Of a stretch of 62,372 bases of DNA, positions 24,901 to 42,408 are shown piece after piece. How positions within the stretch are numbered: position 1 is the first letter of the stretch; the number at the start of each line of letters is the position of its first letter. The notes below the pieces were generated by a model that worked only from the letters and a program-made list of their open reading frames with translations, was not told the origin of the DNA and ran no database searches. Origin of the DNA: Ilumatobacteraceae bacterium (GTDB taxonomy: Bacteria > Actinomycetota > Acidimicrobiia > Acidimicrobiales > Ilumatobacteraceae); contig JBDTPW010000002.1 of assembly GCA_039932495.1 (NCBI GenBank), positions 1 to 62,372 of the forward strand. The letters run 5' to 3'. The position numbers and the translations under genes are program-made.

Positions 24901-26229
24901 ATGCTTCAATTTGGAACTGATGGTGTTCGGGGTAGAGCATTTAGCGAACTAACCGAAACCGATGTATTTGCACTCGGTTTTGCTACAACCAAAGTTCTTT
25001 CTCTGAGCGATGTCGTCATTGGCCGCGACACCCGCGAATCTGGCCAACGGTTGGAATCTGCATTTACTTCTGGCTGCCATCTCGCAGGGGCAACGGTTCA
25101 CTCAATTGGTGTCGCCCCGACGCCGGCAATTGCCGCTGTGGCGGCCGAGCGCGGTTGGGCCGGTGTTGCCGTCACCGCTTCGCACAACGAGTATCAAGAC
25201 AACGGCATCAAGATCTTTGCTCTCGGTGGTTTGAAATTAACTAGGCCCCAAGAACTTGCAATCGAATCGCAACTCGCTGTGGATCACTCACTTGCGTCTC
25301 CTCAGTCGGGCAATTTTGAGCGATTTTCGTCGCCCGAAACTTCGGAGTTGCTAGCCACCTACGCCAAGCACATCGTCGATCTGGTTCCACATCTTGCATT
25401 TAAGGGTATGCACATTGTGTTGGACTGCGCCAACGGTGCAATGTCCGATGTGGCCGGCGACGTTTTTGGCACGTGCGGGGCAACGGTCACCGTCATCAAC
25501 GATGAGCCGGACGGTCGCAATATCAATGCCAATTGTGGGGCCACGTTCCCCGACGTCGTGCGTGACGCCGTTCGCCTCCATCTTGGAGATTTTGGTCTCG
25601 CGTTTGACGGCGACGGCGATCGGGTCATCGCCGTCGATCATGCCGGCAACATTGTCGATGGAGATCATCTGATTGCACTCGCCGCTAACGATCTTCGTTC
25701 GACTGATCAACTCGTCCACAACACGGTCGTCGTCACGGAAATGACAAACATCGGTTTCCATCGGGCGATGGCCGATGGAAACATACGAGTGGTGACGACG
25801 CCGGTTGGAGATAGGAACGTCTTAGCCGAGTTGGATGCACATGGCTACGTGTTAGGTGGAGAGCAAAGCGGACACATCATCTATCGCTCCCACGCCACAA
25901 CAGGAGACGGTTTGCTCGCCGGAGTTTTACTTGCCGACATGATTCGCCGCGCTGGCAAACCACTTCAGCAACTTGCGACGACGGCAATGACCAGCTTCCC
26001 CCAGGTATTACTCAATGTGAAAGTTGCACGCAAAGGAATAGATGTAGGTGCTGCGCTCGCCAACGAGATTGGCGAAGCCAAAGTTGAGCTCGGTAGCGGT
26101 GGGAGAGTTTTGATTCGATCAAGCGGAACAGAATCGGTCGTCAGAGTAATGGTCGAAGCAGAATCGGCGGAACGTGCGCGTGAAATAGCCGATCGTCTGG
26201 CAAAAATTGTGGCCCAACGCCTTGGTTAA
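24901..26229 (+). CDS. glmM: Phosphoglucosamine mutase
   Basis: FGTDGVRG, a phosphoserine loop TASHNEYQDNGIK, FDGDGDR and GGEQSGH. It occupies the conserved post-rpsI position seen in Actinobacteria. Confidence 0.93.
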   Translation: MLQFGTDGVRGRAFSELTETDVFALGFATTKVLSLSDVVIGRDTRESGQRLESAFTSGCHLAGATVHSIGVAPTPAIAAVAAERGWAGVAVTASHNEYQDNGIKIFALGGLKLTRPQELAIESQLAVDHSLASPQSGNFERFSSPETSELLATYAKHIVDLVPHLAFKGMHIVLDCANGAMSDVAGDVFGTCGATVTVINDEPDGRNINANCGATFPDVVRDAVRLHLGDFGLAFDGDGDRVIAVDHAGNIVDGDHLIALAANDLRSTDQLVHNTVVVTEMTNIGFHRAMADGNIRVVTTPVGDRNVLAELDAHGYVLGGEQSGHIIYRSHATTGDGLLAGVLLADMIRRAGKPLQQLATTAMTSFPQVLLNVKVARKGIDVGAALANEIGEAKVELGSGGRVLIRSSGTESVVRVMVEAESAERAREIADRLAKIVAQRLG

Positions 26230-26252: not shown

Positions 26253-29200
26253 ATGTGCGGGATCGTTTGTGTAGTCACTCGTCCAACCAAACGTTCGGTG
26301 CCAAAGTCGGCGGATTTAATAGCCCAGCTTGATGCCTCGGTTGCGGCTGCAATCGCCGGCGATATTCACAAGTCGGCCGAGTTGGTTCAAAACGTCGACA
26401 CCGCCCTCCGAGGAGATGCCGGCCAAATTGCACTTGCTTACAATCTTGAATTGGCGGCCGGAATCATTGCCAGGGTCGATCAACTCGAGTCAATCGCCGC
26501 CGCAGCTGAGAATTCGCTGGAAGCGCTGGTCGGTACGACTGCGGCACAATTCGAGCGCAGCAGCAACGAAATCATTGCATTGCGCGATGCCGCGTGGTCG
26601 CTACGAAACGATCGCCTACGCACCGCCAGGGCTGTCGATGCGCTCGCCGGGAAAGACGCCATCTCGAGTGCCCGTTGCGCGTACTACGCGATCCAGCAGA
26701 CATTTTCGGCGATCGATCGGATGGAGGTCCGTGGCCGCGACTCGGCAGGCGTGCATCTCATGGTCTGGGGTCACGGGATGTCGCCAACTGACAGTCGCAT
26801 TGCGCCTCTACTTATAGATCGACTGGATGACGAATTATTTGGTTCCGGATCCGTGCGAGTCGGGCACAGCGACACCCGAGCATGGTCATTTGTGTACAAG
26901 GCGGCGGCCGAAATCGGCGAACTCGGCGACAACACGCGGGTCATGCGCAGTGAAGTCGTGGACGATGAATTGTTGCGCATGCTTCTCAGTCAGCCAGGGA
27001 GTCGGGTCGCAGTCCTCGGCCACACGCGATGGGCAAGTGTTGGCATCATTTCCGAACCGAACGCCCATCCCGTTAACAGCGACGAACTGAAGGCACTTGG
27101 CGATTCGCCATACGTCGTAGCCGCGTTGAACGGCGACGTCGACAACCACGCCGATATCAGGGTCGGCAACGATTTAAAATTTGCTGAACCGATAACGACA
27201 GATGCAAAAGTTATTCCCGCGATGATTTCGCGAAATTTCGCCGCATCTGGAGATCTCACCGAAGCATTCAGAGCAACCGTCACGACATTTGAAGGATCTG
27301 TCGCCATTGCCGCGGCGTGTGCCGAACAACCAAACAGCATCTTGCTCGCATTGCGCGGAAGCGGTCAGGGACTCTACGTCGGTCTTGCAGAAGATCGATT
27401 CATTGTCGCCAGCGAGCCATATGGCGTAGTGGAAGAGACGATGGACTATATCCGCATGGATGGGGAGACTCCGACAGACGAAGGTGTCCCAGCGAGTCGG
27501 GGACAAATCGTGACCCTCGATGGAGACCTTGCAGGTGAACTCGCTGGCGTTCGGCTGATGACATATGGCGGCAAAGGAATTGCATTGGGCGAAACCGATG
27601 TCATTCGTGCAGAAGTCACAACCCGGGACATCGACCGTGGCCCACATAAACACTTCTTCCTGAAAGAAATGAATGAGGCTCCACAAAGCTTTCGCAAAAC
27701 ATTACGGGGCAAGATCGTAGAACTCGACGGCGTGTTACGCGCATCACTCGATACGTCGGTCATTCCCCAAGATGTGATGGACAAACTGGTTAAGCGAAGC
27801 TTTGGTCGAATTCGAATCATCGGCCAAGGCACGGCCGCCATCGCAGGGCAGAGTCTCGCCCAAATTCTGCGCACGCTCACCGATCGCAACGTTCTGGTCG
27901 ATGCCTTGCCGGCTACCGAATTGTCCGGTTTTCAACTCGGCCTCGACATGTCAGACACATTGATTGTCGCCATTTCCCAAAGCGGAACTACGACAGACAC
28001 CAATCGAACCGTCGATCTTGCCCGCGCCAGGGGAGCCTCGGTCATCGCCATTGTCAATCGGAGAGGAAGCGAACTCGCCGCCAAGGCCGACGGCGTGCTG
28101 TATACATCGGACGGTCGCGACGTGGAGATGAGTGTGGCCAGCACGAAGGCCTTTTACTCGCAGGTCGCGGCCGGTGCAATTCTGGCCTGCGCATTTTCCG
28201 CGGCGATGGGTAGCGGAAGCGACGAAGAGCGTCATAGTTTGCTCACCGCCTTGCGCACGATCCCCGAAGCATTGAGCAAAGTGCTCGCCCTGCGACCACA
28301 GATCGCCGATGCTGCGCACCAATTTGCTCCGGCTCGCCGCTACTGGACGGTTGTTGGCAACGGATTCAATGCGGTTGCCGCAGAGGAAGTACGAATCAAA
28401 CTTTCCGAACTGTGTTACAAGTCGATTTCATGCGACATAACGGAAGACAAAAAACATATTGACCTGTCCTGTGAACCTTTGATCATCGTCTGCGCCACGG
28501 GACTTATGGAAGGTAACGCCACCGATGTGGCGAAGGAAATCGCAATTTATCGTGCCCACAAGGCGCTGCCGATTGTCATTGCCACGGAAGGCGAACAGCG
28601 CTTCGATGCAGCCGCCGCCGTTATCGCCGTACCTCAAGTAGATCCCCGAATGGCCTTCATCCTGAGCGTCATGGTTGGGCATATTTTCGGATACGAATCT
28701 GCGCTGGCCATCGATTCACTTGCCAGGCCGTTGCGCGAGGCCCGCGAGGTGATCGAACACGCCGTCGAATTAGGCGGGGTGGGAAGTCGCCTACTGCTAA
28801 AGGTTCGCGCCGATATCGGTCTGCCGGCCGGGCGATTCTTCGATGCCTTAACCACCGGAAATTATGACGGCAATCTCGAGGCCTCAACTGCGGTCAAGGT
28901 TGTGACAATGCTCCGAGATGTCATGTCCGGTGATCCGTTACAGGCTTATCAGCACGACTCCGGCAAGGTTGGAACACCAGAGGCACTCCTCGATGACGTC
29001 ACATCCGCGTTGACCCGATCAATCGACGAACTCACCAGACCGGTCGACGCGATCAAGCACCAGGCCAAGACGGTGACCGTTGGAATTTCGCGAAGCGACG
29101 AAGGCTTGCTCGATCGCGCGCTCGTCCAATACGTGCTCAAGTCAGGTGTTTCAAGGGATCGCCTGTCGTATCGAACACTGAAGGTAATCGCAGACCTCGA

Positions 29201-29666
29201 TGCCGCGGTTTCGTCGGTTGTCGGATTCACCCGATATCGCATCGAAGGCGACGCCAAGGCTCGCACCGCATCGGTAAGCATCGTTGATCGCGGGGGAATC
29301 TCGCGCCAACTCGAATCCAGAGTCGATCGCAATAGTTCGCTCGTGGGAACCAAAAATCGTGTGGCAAGCGAGCAAGAGGTATTGGTGGCGCGTGGTCGCC
29401 GCGACGCGCGAACCGTTATTTTCGTGCCAGAAGTCAAGGGTTCTGTGACGACGGGGATCACCTTGTTGCACGTGCTCTTTCATGATCGCCTGCCGGCCGC
29501 GACGATGCGCAATGTGTTGCAGGGATATGACGATCGTTACACGCGACTTGTTGACTGGGTGACTGAAACCGAGGGCTCGTTCCGCGAGGATCGCCTGGCC
29601 GAGGTGTCCGTCGCTGACTTGCTGATCCTGCCGATCAGCGATATGGCCGATCACTGGCGCGCATAG
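26253..29666 (+). CDS. GlmS-like class-II glutamine amidotransferase with tandem SIS domains, greatly expanded (1137 aa)
   Basis: The N-terminus is MCGIV (Ntn Cys). GATase motifs are RGRDSAGV, GHTRWAS..SEPNAHP, LNGDVDNH and TDAKVI. The linker is KHFFLKEMNEAPQS. SIS motifs are VAISQSGTTTDT and MSVASTKAFYSQ, followed by a second SIS-like block and an internal KTVTVG. Canonical GlmS is roughly 600-620 aa. Confidence 0.75.
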   Translation: MCGIVCVVTRPTKRSVPKSADLIAQLDASVAAAIAGDIHKSAELVQNVDTALRGDAGQIALAYNLELAAGIIARVDQLESIAAAAENSLEALVGTTAAQFERSSNEIIALRDAAWSLRNDRLRTARAVDALAGKDAISSARCAYYAIQQTFSAIDRMEVRGRDSAGVHLMVWGHGMSPTDSRIAPLLIDRLDDELFGSGSVRVGHSDTRAWSFVYKAAAEIGELGDNTRVMRSEVVDDELLRMLLSQPGSRVAVLGHTRWASVGIISEPNAHPVNSDELKALGDSPYVVAALNGDVDNHADIRVGNDLKFAEPITTDAKVIPAMISRNFAASGDLTEAFRATVTTFEGSVAIAAACAEQPNSILLALRGSGQGLYVGLAEDRFIVASEPYGVVEETMDYIRMDGETPTDEGVPASRGQIVTLDGDLAGELAGVRLMTYGGKGIALGETDVIRAEVTTRDIDRGPHKHFFLKEMNEAPQSFRKTLRGKIVELDGVLRASLDTSVIPQDVMDKLVKRSFGRIRIIGQGTAAIAGQSLAQILRTLTDRNVLVDALPATELSGFQLGLDMSDTLIVAISQSGTTTDTNRTVDLARARGASVIAIVNRRGSELAAKADGVLYTSDGRDVEMSVASTKAFYSQVAAGAILACAFSAAMGSGSDEERHSLLTALRTIPEALSKVLALRPQIADAAHQFAPARRYWTVVGNGFNAVAAEEVRIKLSELCYKSISCDITEDKKHIDLSCEPLIIVCATGLMEGNATDVAKEIAIYRAHKALPIVIATEGEQRFDAAAAVIAVPQVDPRMAFILSVMVGHIFGYESALAIDSLARPLREAREVIEHAVELGGVGSRLLLKVRADIGLPAGRFFDALTTGNYDGNLEASTAVKVVTMLRDVMSGDPLQAYQHDSGKVGTPEALLDDVTSALTRSIDELTRPVDAIKHQAKTVTVGISRSDEGLLDRALVQYVLKSGVSRDRLSYRTLKVIADLDAAVSSVVGFTRYRIEGDAKARTASVSIVDRGGISRQLESRVDRNSSLVGTKNRVASEQEVLVARGRRDARTVIFVPEVKGSVTTGITLLHVLFHDRLPAATMRNVLQGYDDRYTRLVDWVTETEGSFREDRLAEVSVADLLILPISDMADHWRA

Positions 29667-29674
29667 GTTCCTTT

Positions 29675-30040
29675 ATGTTGGGTCTTGGAATCGACGTTGT
29701 CGATGTTGATCGCTTCCGCAAGGTTCTCGAGCGCACACCCGCAATTCGAACGAGAGTGTTTACCTCAAGCGAAATTAGCGAACTGAGTTCGAAAATGGAT
29801 CAGGCCGCGAGCCTTGCGGCCCGATTCGCTGCGCGCGAAGCAACGATGAAGGTTCTCGGCGTCGGAATCGGCGCGATCGATCTACACGACGTGTCAATCG
29901 AGCGCCAAGATTCGGGCGAGCCGGTTTTGCTCGTCACCGGTCGCGCACATGAACTGGCAAGGGCAAAGGGAATCGCCAACTGGTTTGTTTCGCTTTCCCA
30001 CACGGGGCATGTTGCCGTCGCCGTTGTCGCCGCGGCATGA
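29675..30040 (+). CDS. acpS: Holo-[acyl-carrier-protein] synthase
   Basis: MLGLGIDVVDVDRF...FAAREATMKVLG...SLSHTGH.AVA.V. Confidence 0.92.
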   Translation: MLGLGIDVVDVDRFRKVLERTPAIRTRVFTSSEISELSSKMDQAASLAARFAAREATMKVLGVGIGAIDLHDVSIERQDSGEPVLLVTGRAHELARAKGIANWFVSLSHTGHVAVAVVAAA

Positions 30041-31176
30041 CCGCACAGCGTTGGGCGTGGGCGGACATTGATCTCGCCGCGTTGGAGCGCAATGTTCGAA
30101 CGCTTTGCACACATGTGCACCCTCAACAACTGTGGGCCGTAGTTAAGGCAAATGGATACGGACATGGCGCGGTTCCGGTAGCGACGACCGCCATCGACGG
30201 TGGCGCCAAGGGACTATGTGTCGCCATAGTAGACGAAGGAATTGAACTTCGGGATGCCCAAATAGACGTACCAATCTTGGTAATGAGTGAGCAGCCAAGT
30301 TCGCAACACTTGGCGATGATCGATCATCGACTAACGGCGACCCTGTACAACGCAGAAACCATTGCCCAGTTTGCCCATGTCGCGCGCGATCGCGGAGTAG
30401 TCACCAACGTTCATCTAAAGGTCGACACGGGGATGCACCGCGTTGGTGCATCTCTAGATAACGCAGTGAAGCTGGCACAACAAATAGAAGCCGAGCCTTC
30501 ATTGCGATTGGAAGGCGTGTATACCCATTTCGCCACCGCCGATCTGGATGGTCACCCCGCGACTTCACTTCAATACGAACGGTTCTTTCACATAGTTGAC
30601 CAACTGAAACAAATTGGAATCACTCCCGCGATGACTCACACCTCGAATTCGGCCGCGGCGATACGGCGGCTTGATACACGGTCGACGATCGCGCGTATCG
30701 GCATCGCGATGTACGGAATTGCGACAAATGCTGAAACGGATTCATTTGGGTCGCCATCAGAAGTGGCACTCGAGCCGGTGCTCTCGTTACGCGCACGGGT
30801 TTCACATGTGCGGTGGGTCGAGGCCGGAGAAGGAGTTTCATACGGCTTGAAACGTCCGCTGGCCGCGCGAACCTGCATTGCCACGCTGCCCATTGGCTAC
30901 GCGGATGGCGTTCCTCGCCAGTTGTGGGCGGCAGGTGAGGTGCTGATCGCCGGTCGGCGTCGACGCATTGCCGGAGTCGTGACGATGGATCAGATGATGA
31001 TCGACTGCGGTCAAGAGGAAATCGCGATTGGCGCTGAGGCTGTGCTTATCGGACGGCAAGGTGCGGAGCACATTTCGGCAAACGAAATTGCCCGTCATGT
31101 CGATTCGATTGGTTACGACATCGTGTGCGGAATCAGCGCTCGTGTACCGCGCAACTATGTTCGATCGGCGCATTAA
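30037..31176 (+). CDS. alr: Alanine racemase
   Basis: The PLP-Lys motif VVKANGYGHG. 379 aa. ATGA overlap with acpS. Confidence 0.93.
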   Translation: MTAQRWAWADIDLAALERNVRTLCTHVHPQQLWAVVKANGYGHGAVPVATTAIDGGAKGLCVAIVDEGIELRDAQIDVPILVMSEQPSSQHLAMIDHRLTATLYNAETIAQFAHVARDRGVVTNVHLKVDTGMHRVGASLDNAVKLAQQIEAEPSLRLEGVYTHFATADLDGHPATSLQYERFFHIVDQLKQIGITPAMTHTSNSAAAIRRLDTRSTIARIGIAMYGIATNAETDSFGSPSEVALEPVLSLRARVSHVRWVEAGEGVSYGLKRPLAARTCIATLPIGYADGVPRQLWAAGEVLIAGRRRRIAGVVTMDQMMIDCGQEEIAIGAEAVLIGRQGAEHISANEIARHVDSIGYDIVCGISARVPRNYVRSAH

Positions 31177-39580: not shown

Positions 39581-40054
39581 TTAATGCTTGTGGCGAATTC
39601 CGTTCAGAGTGTTGACCATCTCGACTGCACCAATGGCCGCTTCCTCACCCTTGTTGCCGGCATCGGGGCCTGAACGGGCAACGGCTTGCTCGACATTTTC
39701 TGTGGTCAGCACGGCGAATCCGATCGGGATGCCGGTTTCCAACTGAATCCTGGCCACGCCATCGGCACACGGCCCGGCCACATATTCAAAGTGCGCGGTT
39801 TCGCCGCGAATGACTGCCCCGAGTGCGACCAACGCGTCGTAATGTCCACTAAGCGCCATCGTTCGAGCGGCGAGCGGTATTTCGTACGCGCCGGGGACCC
39901 ACACGACATCGATGCTCCCTTCGCTGACTCCACATTTTCGAAGACCCCTCTTGGCCCCGTCCAATAATCCGGTGACGATGAATTCATTGAAACGCGAGCA
40001 CACAATTCCGACCCATAGCGTGGAACCATTTGGCGCAGCATCGATTGAGGTCAC
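39581..40054 (-). CDS. ribH: 6,7-dimethyl-8-ribityllumazine synthase
   Basis: [14 protein letters not shown].....G......[13 protein letters not shown]...[15 protein letters not shown]. Confidence 0.95.
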
Positions 40055-41304
40055 TTGCTGTCTCCCTTGTCAGATTTGTAAATATCAGAACCGTCGAACA
40101 CATGACCCATTCGGTCGCGCTTGGTGCGCAAATATAATTCGTTTTCGGGGGTCGAGTCGATGTCGATCGCCACGCGCTCGACGATCTTTAATCCGTAGCC
40201 GGCAATCCCTCCATACTTTGCTGGATTGTTGGTGATGAGGCGCAGTTCGTGGACCCCAAGGTCGGCCAAGATTTGGGCACCGATGCCATATTCACGGCTA
40301 TCGACGGGAAGTCCAAGTTTGGTGTTGGCGTCGACGGTGTCGAAGCCCTCATCTTGTAGCGAATAGGCGCGAATCTTGTGGCCGATGCCAATTCCGCGAC
40401 CCTCGTGTCCACGAAGGTACACGACTACGCCCCGACCCTCGTCGTTAATTCGCTGCATCGCCACGGCAAGTTGTGCCCCGCAGTCGCAACGCCTGCTACC
40501 AAAGACATCACCGGTGAGACATTCGCTGTGCACACGAGTCAGGACAGGAGCGCCGTCGCTCACATCGCCTTTGACGAATGCAAGGTGTTCGATGCCGTCC
40601 ACTGTGCTGCGATAGGCGATGCACGTGAAAATTCCCCACGCGGTGGGAACACTCGCAGAGCCCATTCGCTCCACCAGCCGTTCGTGGCGACGCCGGTAGG
40701 CGATTAGTTCGGCGATCGAGGAGAGCAACAATCCATGGGTGGCGCAGAATTTTTGTAGGTCGGGTAGGCGGGCCATCGTCCCGTCGTCGTTTTGAATTTC
40801 GCAAATGACTCCCGCCGGCTGACAACCCGCGAGCCTGGCTAGATCGACCGCGGCCTCGGTGTGCCCGGCGCGCTTGAGCACGCCACCTTCCCGAGAGCGA
40901 AGGGGAAAAACGTGACCAGGCCTGGAAAATGCGCTGTGTGGAACCGTCGGATCGGCAAGTGCGCGCAAAGTGGCGGCACGATCGGCGGCAGAGATTCCAG
41001 TCGTCGTACCTTCCCGAAGGTCGACCGAAACCGTAAACGCGGTGCGCTGGCTTTCGGTGTTGTTGTCGACCATCAACGGCAGGCGAAGTTCGTCGCACCT
41101 TTCGGCGGTAAGTGGCGTGACAATGACACCTGAAGTGTGGCGCACAACGAAGGCGATTCTTTCCGGCGTGGCAAACTCTGCGGCCATGATCAGGTCGCCC
41201 TCGTTTTCCCGATCCTCATCGTCGACGAGCACAACCATTTCGCCCCGCGAGATTGCGGCGATCACGTCCTCAATTGGTGCCATTGCGGTCTTGGTTGTGT
41301 TCAT
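40051..41304 (-). CDS. ribBA: Bifunctional 3,4-dihydroxy-2-butanone-4-phosphate synthase / GTP cyclohydrolase II
   Basis: [16 protein letters not shown] (the RibB part) and [21 protein letters not shown] (the RibA zinc site). Confidence 0.95.
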
Positions 41305-42320
41305 GATGGTCCTTGCATATTTGCGGGAGGTGGGGGATCAAACGGTTCCAAAACGATTTCCAGGTCATCGCCGAGCCTCGTGGATGAAGTGAAATGTCCG
41401 CGCCACATCTCTGCCATTGTCCGAGCACCTGGGCCACGGAACACGGGATTGGAATCGTCGCCGCCGGCGATGACTGGTGCGATGTGCAAGACGTAACGAT
41501 TGACCAATCCCTGACTGTGAAATTCCGCTGCTACTAGCGGACCGCCCTCAACGAGCAGTTGGAGCACGCCTTCGCCACCGAGTTGGTCGAGCAGACCCGT
41601 GAGCTCGCCGCTGTACTCCAGGCACGGATGAACATGGGCGCCTGCGTCAATCTTGCCCAACACGATTCGTCGTGGCGAGGTACCAGCAACATCGCGCACG
41701 TTGAGATACGGGTCGTCGGCACGTACGGTTCCCGCGCCAACGAGAATGGCATCGCTTTCGGCGCGAAGTTCGTGAACCCGTCGTCGAGCATCTTGTCCCG
41801 TGATCCACTGGCTCGTGCCATCGGCCGCCGAGGTACGCCCGTCGATCGTGTACGCCATCTTCAAAACAACAAACGGTCTCTTGGTGCGACGATGGAATAG
41901 ATACGGGGCGAGTTGAGCAGATACTGCCTCCGTACACACACCGACATCTACTTGAATTCCGGCCAAGCGCATCGCCTCGATGCCGCGACCGGAGACTTGC
42001 CCATCCGGGTCGACAACGCCAACAACCACTCTCGAGATTCCTGCCTCAATGATCGCCTTCGTACACGGGCCCGTGCGACCGGTGTGATGGCACGGCTCCA
42101 AGGTGGTGTACATCGACGCGCCCCTTGCGCGGTCGCCGGCAAGTCGCAGCGCCACAATTTCGGCGTGGGCACCGCCGGGCGCCTCCGTTGCGCCCGTGGC
42201 AATGACGCCGCTTGATGAAGTGATCACTGCACCGACCCATGGATTAGGACGACTGCGCAGGCGTGCTTGAGCGGCGGTCGCCACCGCAAGTTGCATCGTC
42301 TGCTCGTCGATCGTGGTCAC
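41301..42320 (-). CDS. ribD: Bifunctional riboflavin biosynthesis deaminase/reductase
   Basis: [15 protein letters not shown] and TLEPC.H.GRTGPC (the deaminase zinc site), plus a reductase half. The track ORF starts at a TTG at 42383 that sits inside the riboswitch-downstream hairpin. I prefer the GTG at 42320 ([13 protein letters not shown]), which has GGGAAG upstream. Confidence 0.9.
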
Positions 42321-42408
42321 TCGTTTTCGCTTCCCGTCGTTCAGACTCCGCACAGGCACTGAAAGCGGGGACGACGAAAGCAACGCCTCGTAGAGGCGCT
42401 ACCCACGT

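Follow-up and report, generated by a model that had tools for sequence, protein, structure and literature searches.

The window analysed here is a stretch of 62,372 nucleotides, positions 1 to 62,372 of contig JBDTPW010000002.1 from an Ilumatobacteraceae bacterium (assembly GCA_039932495.1). The gene of interest is a glmS-like open reading frame (ORF) that runs on the + strand, in a single uninterrupted frame, from an ATG at 26253 to a stop codon at 29664–29666. It encodes 1137 amino acids (aa), and is referred to below as long-form glmS. Upstream lie truA, rplM, rpsI and glmM; downstream lie acpS, alr, tsaE, tsaB, rimI, tsaD, dusB, maf and groEL. An earlier note on this DNA had described an uninterrupted ORF opening with MCGIV and encoding a GlmS-type amidotransferase about twice as long as normal. 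The ORF list and its translation agree with this description (1137 aa vs 609 aa in Escherichia coli GlmS), and each of the GlmS motifs quoted at the time was found in the translation.

These motifs begin at the following residues of the ORF: MCGIV at 1, RGRDSAG at 160, GHTRWAS at 256, NAHP at 270, LNGDVDNH at 292, TDAKVI at 316, KHFFLKEMNEAPQ at 466, ISQSGTTTDT at 574, VASTKAFYSQ at 628, KLSELCYKS at 716, EDKKHID at 731 and HQAKTVTVG at 936. A Pfam scan of the ORF returned just two domains: GATase_6 (aa 253–388) and one SIS (aa 518–645). The NCBIfam glmS models cover about aa 240–819; the next NCBIfam match after GlmS is NagB-II (2e-18). Among PDB sequences, the top match is E. coli GlmS (E = 4.8e-25).

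A domain layout was derived from a full-length AlphaFold2 (AF2) model together with a profile alignment to E. coli GlmS. The model was built from 68 family sequences and has a predicted local distance difference test score (pLDDT) of 79 and a predicted template modelling score (pTM) of 0.70. The resulting features are:

26253..29666, + strand: whole long-form glmS ORF, 1137 aa plus stop (ORF list and translation)
26253..26279, + strand: initiator Met, N-terminal nucleophile (Ntn) Cys and strand beta1 (aa 1–9); MCGI is conserved and the AF2 model has a strand at aa 4–9
26280..26663, + strand: module 1, a predicted helical bundle between strand beta1 and the helix preceding RGRDSAG (aa 10–137; AF2), without counterpart in E. 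coli GlmS
26664..27632, + strand: class II (Ntn) glutaminase domain with small insertions (aa 138–460; GATase_6 match and invariant site residues)
26781–26891, 26937–27011, 27087–27113 and 27522–27599, + strand: the small glutaminase insertions (profile alignment to E. coli GlmS)
27633..28727, + strand: isomerase domain, consisting of SIS1 (aa 461–660) and SIS2 (aa 661–825) (Pfam SIS match, Foldseek and invariant residues)
28728..29036, + strand: module 2, a predicted helical bundle placed after the last SIS2 helix and before the catalytic tail (aa 826–928; AF2)
29037..29102, + strand: internal C-tail homologue RPVDAIKHQAKTVTVGISR (aa 929–950; conservation and local hhalign), a low-pLDDT loop
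29103..29663, + strand: module 3, a C-terminal alpha/beta domain whose strand order is predicted to be PAS/GAF-like, with a helical subdomain after it (aa 951–1137, 187 aa; stand-alone AF2 model)

The 528 aa by which the protein exceeds E. coli GlmS are thus made up of three large modules and ~100 aa of small insertions, the latter in the glutaminase domain at aa 177–213, 229–253, 279–287 and 424–449. The earlier note had proposed three extra segments, to be delimited by profile searches and structure prediction. All three exist, but their boundaries have shifted: the middle one comprises ~103 aa rather than ~130, and the small insertions come in addition. Two 'SIS blocks' that had been quoted as separate turn out to lie together within the first SIS subdomain.

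Intact catalytic core and internal C-tail

A Foldseek comparison pairs the AF2 model with E. coli GlmS 2j6h, a structure bound to glucose-6-phosphate (Glc-6-P) and 6-diazo-5-oxo-L-norleucine (DON), at E = 1.6e-25 and a target template modelling score (TM) of 0.77. The model also matches human GFAT1 (E ~4e-25), and isolated GlmS/GFAT isomerase domains with TM 0.82–0.89.

Residue conservation was assessed in 29 sequences, namely the query and 28 full-length representatives of 38–56% identity and 1073–1277 aa; residues are given in E. coli numbering unless assigned to the ORF. Nineteen of the 21 active-site residues checked outside the tail are conserved. These include (i) the glutaminase residues R26, D29, R73, W74, H86, N98, G99 and D123, invariant in all 29 sequences, (ii) the isomerase and phosphate-loop residues T302, Q348, S349, T352, V399, S401, K485, E488 and H504, likewise invariant, and (iii) S347 and A400, each kept in 28 of the 29. 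The T76 position is occupied by Ser. A Cys directly follows the initiator Met (MCGI, aa 1–4), and is kept in nearly all family members wherever the N-terminus is complete. The isomerase catalytic helix had earlier been considered diverged; K485, E488 and H504 are all retained, as K716, E719 and H735 of the ORF, leaving functional divergence of this helix unsupported. The GlmS core—an Ntn glutaminase and a double-SIS isomerase—is intact.

In GlmS, the C-tail contributes to closure of the isomerase site, to the ammonia channel and to inter-domain signalling; E488, H504 and K603 are catalytic, and a critical role falls to the last four residues (PMC10087520; PMC3224219). In the long form, the corresponding segment (aa 929–950) shows the highest conservation in the C-terminal half, with a mean identity of 0.84 and the motif RPxDAIKHQAKTVTVG. 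Residues R929, D932, H936–G944 (including K939 and the run A938-K939-T-V-T-V943) and R947 are invariant. A local profile alignment (hhalign) pairs PIDAIKHQAKTVTVG of the ORF with the E. coli tail DVDQPRNLAKSVTVE, and K939 is likely the counterpart of E. coli K603. The global hhalign alignment placed K603 at R831 instead; this candidate was rejected because its column is unconserved (Arg in 23 sequences, Leu in four, Lys and Val in one each), while K939 is invariant and is picked by the local alignment. The proposal that HQAKTVTVG represents an internalised GlmS C-tail therefore holds up, KTVTVG being invariant in the family.

The tail is not a free C-terminus in the long form: the position of the usual terminal Glu is taken by an invariant Gly (Gly944), which is followed by 193 further residues. 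Two look-alike motifs were also noted on either side of module 2: ARPLREAR (28722–28745, aa 824–831) and TRPVDAIK(HQAKTVTVG) (29034–29084, aa 928–944). Each is similar to DQPRNLAK, with which the E. coli C-tail begins; only the second is conserved. The pair may be a scar of the insertion of module 2.

Three accessory modules

Modules 1 and 2 are both modelled as helical bundles. In module 1, AF2 helices span aa 19–34, 38–51, 54–61, 65–90 and 97–132, with pLDDT mostly 90–98; mean identity is 0.24, and D112 and D120 are the only invariant residues. In module 2, helices span aa 825–840, 844–867, 877–891, 895–903 and 909–928, and mean identity is 0.32.

The C-terminal domain is better conserved, with a mean identity of 0.41. 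Modelled alone, the C-terminal 193 aa reach a pLDDT of 92.3 and a pTM of 0.89, with the element order three helices, beta-beta, helices, beta-beta-beta, five helices. This order of secondary-structure elements suggests a PAS/GAF-type strand order for module 3. The Foldseek matches of the module are all weak: the top one is to the ACT/PAS-containing region of the large glutamate dehydrogenase L-GDH180 of Mycobacterium smegmatis (7jsr; E = 2e-3, probability 0.99, TM 0.43–0.46), and the next are GAF, PAS and Cache sensor domains (E 0.03–0.4, TM 0.25–0.44). Across the deep family, ~16 residues of module 3 are invariant, many of them charged or polar: Y995, S1022, R1023, K1034, D1051, R1053, H1073, E1105 and several Gly are among them. 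They sit on the strands and on the connector between strands 2 and 3.

At the sequence level, the extra modules have no Pfam, NCBIfam or PDB match in the query or in 12 distant full-length members. When each extra segment was searched against Pfam alone at E <= 10, again with the 12 distant members, only noise was returned (EspC 0.36, MMR_HSR1 0.09). A PDB search with a profile of the C-terminal domain gave nothing at E <= 10, and no PAS/GAF sequence profile in Pfam matched aa 951–1137 of the query or the 12 distant members. Literature searches for a described long GlmS, or for its extra modules, yielded nothing relevant. The possibility raised in the earlier note that the extra segments are ordinary domains, already characterised in a GlmS subfamily, is not borne out by these searches. 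Internal duplication as a source of the modules was also considered, and rejected: profile–profile comparisons of the modules with each other, and with the SIS and GATase parts, all gave probabilities below 1%.

Nucleotide divergence was measured against the two closest relatives. The synonymous rate (dS) is ~2 or more and thus saturated, and the nonsynonymous rate (dN) and rough ratios were used instead. Values of dN are 0.15–0.20 for module 1, 0.04–0.08 for module 2, 0.04–0.08 for module 3 (detailed values 0.05–0.06), 0.05–0.10 for the catalytic core and 0.02 for the tail. Judged by these rates, purifying selection acts in a single frame on all three modules and on every other segment. GC content at third codon positions (GC3) is uniform along the gene.

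Family distribution and genomic context

The long form is widespread. Among 5.8 billion proteins searched, more than 120 clusters matched at 64–97% identity, all of ~1130–1170 aa. These come from independent NCBI, ENA, JGI and Logan assemblies, belong to Ilumatobacteraceae or Acidimicrobiia metagenome-assembled genomes (MAGs), and carry the database names 'SIS domain-containing protein' or 'putative glucosamine-6-phosphate synthase'. In a scan of one genome per GTDB species with the C-terminal 193 aa, at least 342 genomes were positive; the best 80 of these species matches are all Acidimicrobiia, Ilumatobacteraceae or acIV MAGs. Some assemblies carry the gene on contigs of 2.4–4.9 Mb.

A HMMER search of 1.84 billion representatives with aa 826–1137 gave 657 clusters. 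Among the best 150, all complete proteins are 1073–1277 aa long and carry the region at the C-terminal end, and the remainder are evident fragments; the C-terminal region was seen neither on its own nor in another fusion among the 657 clusters, of which the best 150 were inspected for length. A survey of orthologue lengths, recommended in the earlier note, finds the long form in these relatives as well, and the three modules co-occur in every full-length family member examined; this co-occurrence and the low dN values speak for functional modules. With a profile of the most distant members, this architecture was also recovered from MAGs that bear the labels Planctomycetota and Candidatus Riflebacteria. 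One metagenomic protein of the representative library (P0128, 404 aa) has a GroES-like N-terminus running into the C-terminal domain of the long GlmS; chimerism or mis-assembly, not a true fusion, is the probable origin of this ORF.

The immediate neighbours of long-form glmS in the window are:

24901..26229, + strand: glmM (phosphoglucosamine mutase; TIGR01455), ending 23 nucleotides before the ORF
29675..30040, + strand: acpS (over the NF000832 cut-off), starting 8 nucleotides after the ORF stop codon

The glmM gene clears the TIGR01455 equivalog cut-off narrowly (450.2 vs 447.55 bits). Synteny was counted in 80 related species loci, with the upstream side scored in 61 and the downstream side in 78 that have enough flanking sequence. 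The immediate upstream gene is glmM in 60 of the 61, and the immediate downstream gene is acpS in 76 of the 78. The order rplM-rpsI-glmM-[long gene]-acpS-…-alr-tsaE is also found around a homologue of 65% identity, and again in a far more distant Acidimicrobiia-type genome, on a 2.6-Mb contig. The earlier placing of the gene in a glmM-adjacent glmS slot, with the neighbours as then listed, is therefore supported. The operon-like position of the ORF, 23 nucleotides after glmM, points to the GlcN-6-P pathway and gives indirect support for the predicted synthase activity. The order in M. tuberculosis H37Rv is rplM-rpsI-glmM … glmS … alr-tsaE-tsaB-rimI-tsaD-groES-groEL, and the same slot presumably holds a canonical glmS in other Actinomycetota.

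A second GlmS-like sequence was found neither in the 62-kb window nor, in the 80 related loci, at a distance of up to 6 kb from the gene. Rfam revealed no RNA element close to the gene, glmS ribozyme or otherwise. The sole Rfam match in the window is a full-length flavin mononucleotide (FMN) riboswitch (RF00050; 42407–42535, - strand, 113.5 bits), which lies directly upstream of ribD (41301–42383, - strand) and ribBA (40051–41304, - strand).

Two further arrangements were noted in relatives. Firstly, a YjeF_N/Carb_kinase (nnr) gene stands between acpS and alr in some loci (L002, 11409–14320; L086, 10451–14203, the latter with an additional CBS-domain gene). In the window, acpS overlaps alr directly (29675–31176), and thus nnr is absent from this position in the lineage of the window. 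Secondly, on a non-actinobacterial contig (L087, 7001–11289), long-form glmS and the HAD-family hydrolase gene downstream of it share 4 nucleotides, and murD lies ~3 kb away. This arrangement may be a further functional link to amino-sugar or cell-wall metabolism.

Functional reading and comparison with known systems

Taken together, these features incline us, with moderate confidence, to read the ORF as a functional glutamine:fructose-6-phosphate amidotransferase (GlmS, EC 2.6.1.16), present in a conserved long form with tail-controlling accessory modules. The two-domain engine is intact and the catalytic tail motif AK(T)VTV is kept; it is therefore most likely that the long form performs the usual reaction, in which glutamine is hydrolysed at Cys1 and the ammonia is channelled to convert fructose-6-phosphate (Fru-6-P) into glucosamine-6-phosphate (GlcN-6-P), here for the adjacent GlmM. 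Since it has most GlmS features but lacks a free C-terminus and falls below the curated cut-offs, the protein is best described as a distinct long-form subfamily and a positional glmS orthologue, rather than as a standard member of GlmS.

Five observations weigh against the reading of the ORF as a functional, tail-controlled GlmS: (i) its bit scores lie under the curated GlmS cut-offs (220.6 vs 418 for TIGR01135; 248.5 vs 381 for NF001484), (ii) S303 is replaced by Ala and H77 by Val, Ile or Asn in the 29 sequences, (iii) the AF2 model leaves the tail unplaced, with a pLDDT of 22–42, (iv) the fold matches of module 3 are weak, none reaching E <= 1e-3 and TM ranging from 0.3 to 0.46, and (v) on Planctomycetota-type contigs the long gene does not adjoin glmM, and the gene context there is uninformative. 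The low pLDDT of the tail resembles the mobile tail of GlmS.

The accessory modules are probably regulatory. Unlike the free tail of canonical GlmS, the tail of the long form is tethered at both ends, and the modules may control both its closure and the coupling of glutaminase to isomerase. The C-terminal sensor-like domain would then be a cis-acting allosteric switch, with a phosphorylated metabolite of the amino-sugar pathway, such as uridine diphosphate N-acetylglucosamine (UDP-GlcNAc) or GlcN-6-P, as candidate ligand. This switch would stand in for the RNA- or partner-protein-based control of GlmS in other bacteria. A sensor role for this domain is plausible, given its confident model, PAS-like strand order, GAF/PAS/Cache matches and invariant polar residues. 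In its fullest form, the proposal is that of a self-regulating GlmS: with a pathway or nitrogen-status metabolite as its ligand, the PAS/GAF-like domain would, together with the helical modules, hold or release the internal tail and so switch ammonia channelling and sugar-site closure on and off. The long form would also be the only GlcN-6-P synthase in abundant freshwater Acidimicrobiia and in some Planctomycetota. We offer this fuller proposal tentatively. If true, such control would be protein-intrinsic, and distinct from the glmS ribozyme, the small RNAs GlmY/GlmZ, GlmR and the UDP-GlcNAc inhibition of eukaryotes.

Alternatively, the enzyme may be an active GlmS in which the three modules build a different oligomer, stabilise the protein or dock a partner, with no part in sensing or gating. 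Low conservation and near absence of invariant residues in the two helical bundles are typical of scaffolds or interfaces; the extra domains of L-GDH180, the best structural analogue, make inter-subunit contacts; the fold evidence for a sensor is weak; and E. coli GlmS is itself regulated by a dimer–hexamer equilibrium (PMC10087520). This purely architectural role, while possible, sits uneasily with three properties of the long form. The invariant, often charged or polar residues of the C-terminal domain lie where PAS/GAF domains bind ligands; the domain evolves as slowly as the catalytic core; and a catalytic lid placed between two extra modules is hard to square with a non-catalytic role for them. 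We consider such a role less likely than a regulatory one, though it is the chief rival.

A second alternative is a neofunctionalised GlmS: an amidotransferase or isomerase whose substrate is a different sugar phosphate, or which runs in another direction, with GlcN-6-P supplied by a normal glmS located elsewhere in the genome. The scores below the equivalog cut-offs, the changes at S303 and H77, a protein end that is no longer ...VTVE, and the Planctomycetota copy unlinked to glmM would all fit such a paralogue. It is nonetheless improbable: the remaining residues of the glutamine site, the phosphate loop and isomerase catalysis do not vary at 38–56% identity, the glmM–acpS slot is kept in nearly all related Acidimicrobiia, and neither the window nor the near surroundings of the gene in the 80 related genomes hold a second GlmS-like sequence. 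The earlier note had left it open whether the gene encodes the sole synthase or a neofunctionalised paralogue; the conserved catalytic residues and the synteny favour a functional GlcN-6-P synthase and make the paralogue less likely. Finally, an assembly error, frameshift or fusion joining glmS to its neighbours, suggested by the unusual length and nothing else, is excluded by the comparative data: the same uninterrupted architecture recurs in hundreds of independent assemblies, some of them with megabase contigs, and the gene has uniform GC3 and, by its dN values, purifying selection on every segment in one frame.

The reading of long-form glmS as a functional GlmS has both mechanistic and practical consequences. 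GlmS is an ammonia-channelling enzyme and an antibiotic target. Closure of its sugar site and coupling of its two active sites are considered to require a free C-terminal tail (…KSVTVE). An internal lid between extra domains would contradict this assumed need for a terminal tail, and the long form—with a helical bundle right after the Cys1 strand as well—may offer a new system for studying lid closure and the control of domain coupling. Furthermore, the family fails the curated GlmS profile hidden Markov model cut-offs and is named 'SIS domain-containing protein' by NCBI; in metabolic reconstructions of abundant freshwater acIV/Ilumatobacteraceae, and in those of some Planctomycetota, the first step of UDP-GlcNAc/peptidoglycan synthesis may therefore be recorded as missing in error.

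The closest known system is E. coli GlmS (2J6H/1JXA; TIGR01135). The two share an Ntn Cys1 glutaminase joined to a double-SIS isomerase, 19 of 21 active-site residues, the AK[ST]VTV motif and a common fold (TM 0.77), and a gene adjoining glmM is common to bacterial GlmS and the long form. The E. coli enzyme differs in its length, and in lacking both the ~128-aa bundle after beta1 and the ~103-aa bundle before the tail. Its tail is terminal and ends in Glu, whereas that of the long form is internal (…KTVTVG-ISR…), has the invariant Gly in place of Glu, and is followed by the 187-aa alpha/beta domain; the long form, moreover, scores under the family cut-offs.

In eukaryotic GFAT/Gfa1 (human GFAT1, 6R4E; Candida Gfa1), the GlmS core is likewise longer, owing to lineage-specific insertions in the glutaminase domain. 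GFAT is subject to allosteric feedback by UDP-GlcNAc, in part via C-tail dynamics (PMC3224219). However, at ~680–700 aa it still ends in …VTVE, has no post-beta1 bundle, spacer or C-terminal domain, and its regulator binds the isomerase domain itself rather than an appended sensor domain.

L-GDH180 of M. smegmatis (7JSR; 180 kDa), the top fold match of module 3, is likewise a housekeeping enzyme enlarged by helical motifs and ACT/PAS-type domains, which have been proposed as metabolic sensors and oligomer interfaces (10.1101/2020.11.14.381715). Its catalytic domain and reaction are unrelated to those of GlmS, and with TM 0.43–0.46 and no sequence similarity the resemblance to module 3 is an analogy, not family membership. 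Lastly, the SIS-only enzymes NagB-II, GlmD, AgaS, FrlB and KpsF/GutQ share the SIS fold and phosphate-binding loop with the long form. They are without a glutaminase domain, Cys1 and C-tail; the long form has all three, and thus is not an SIS-only enzyme.

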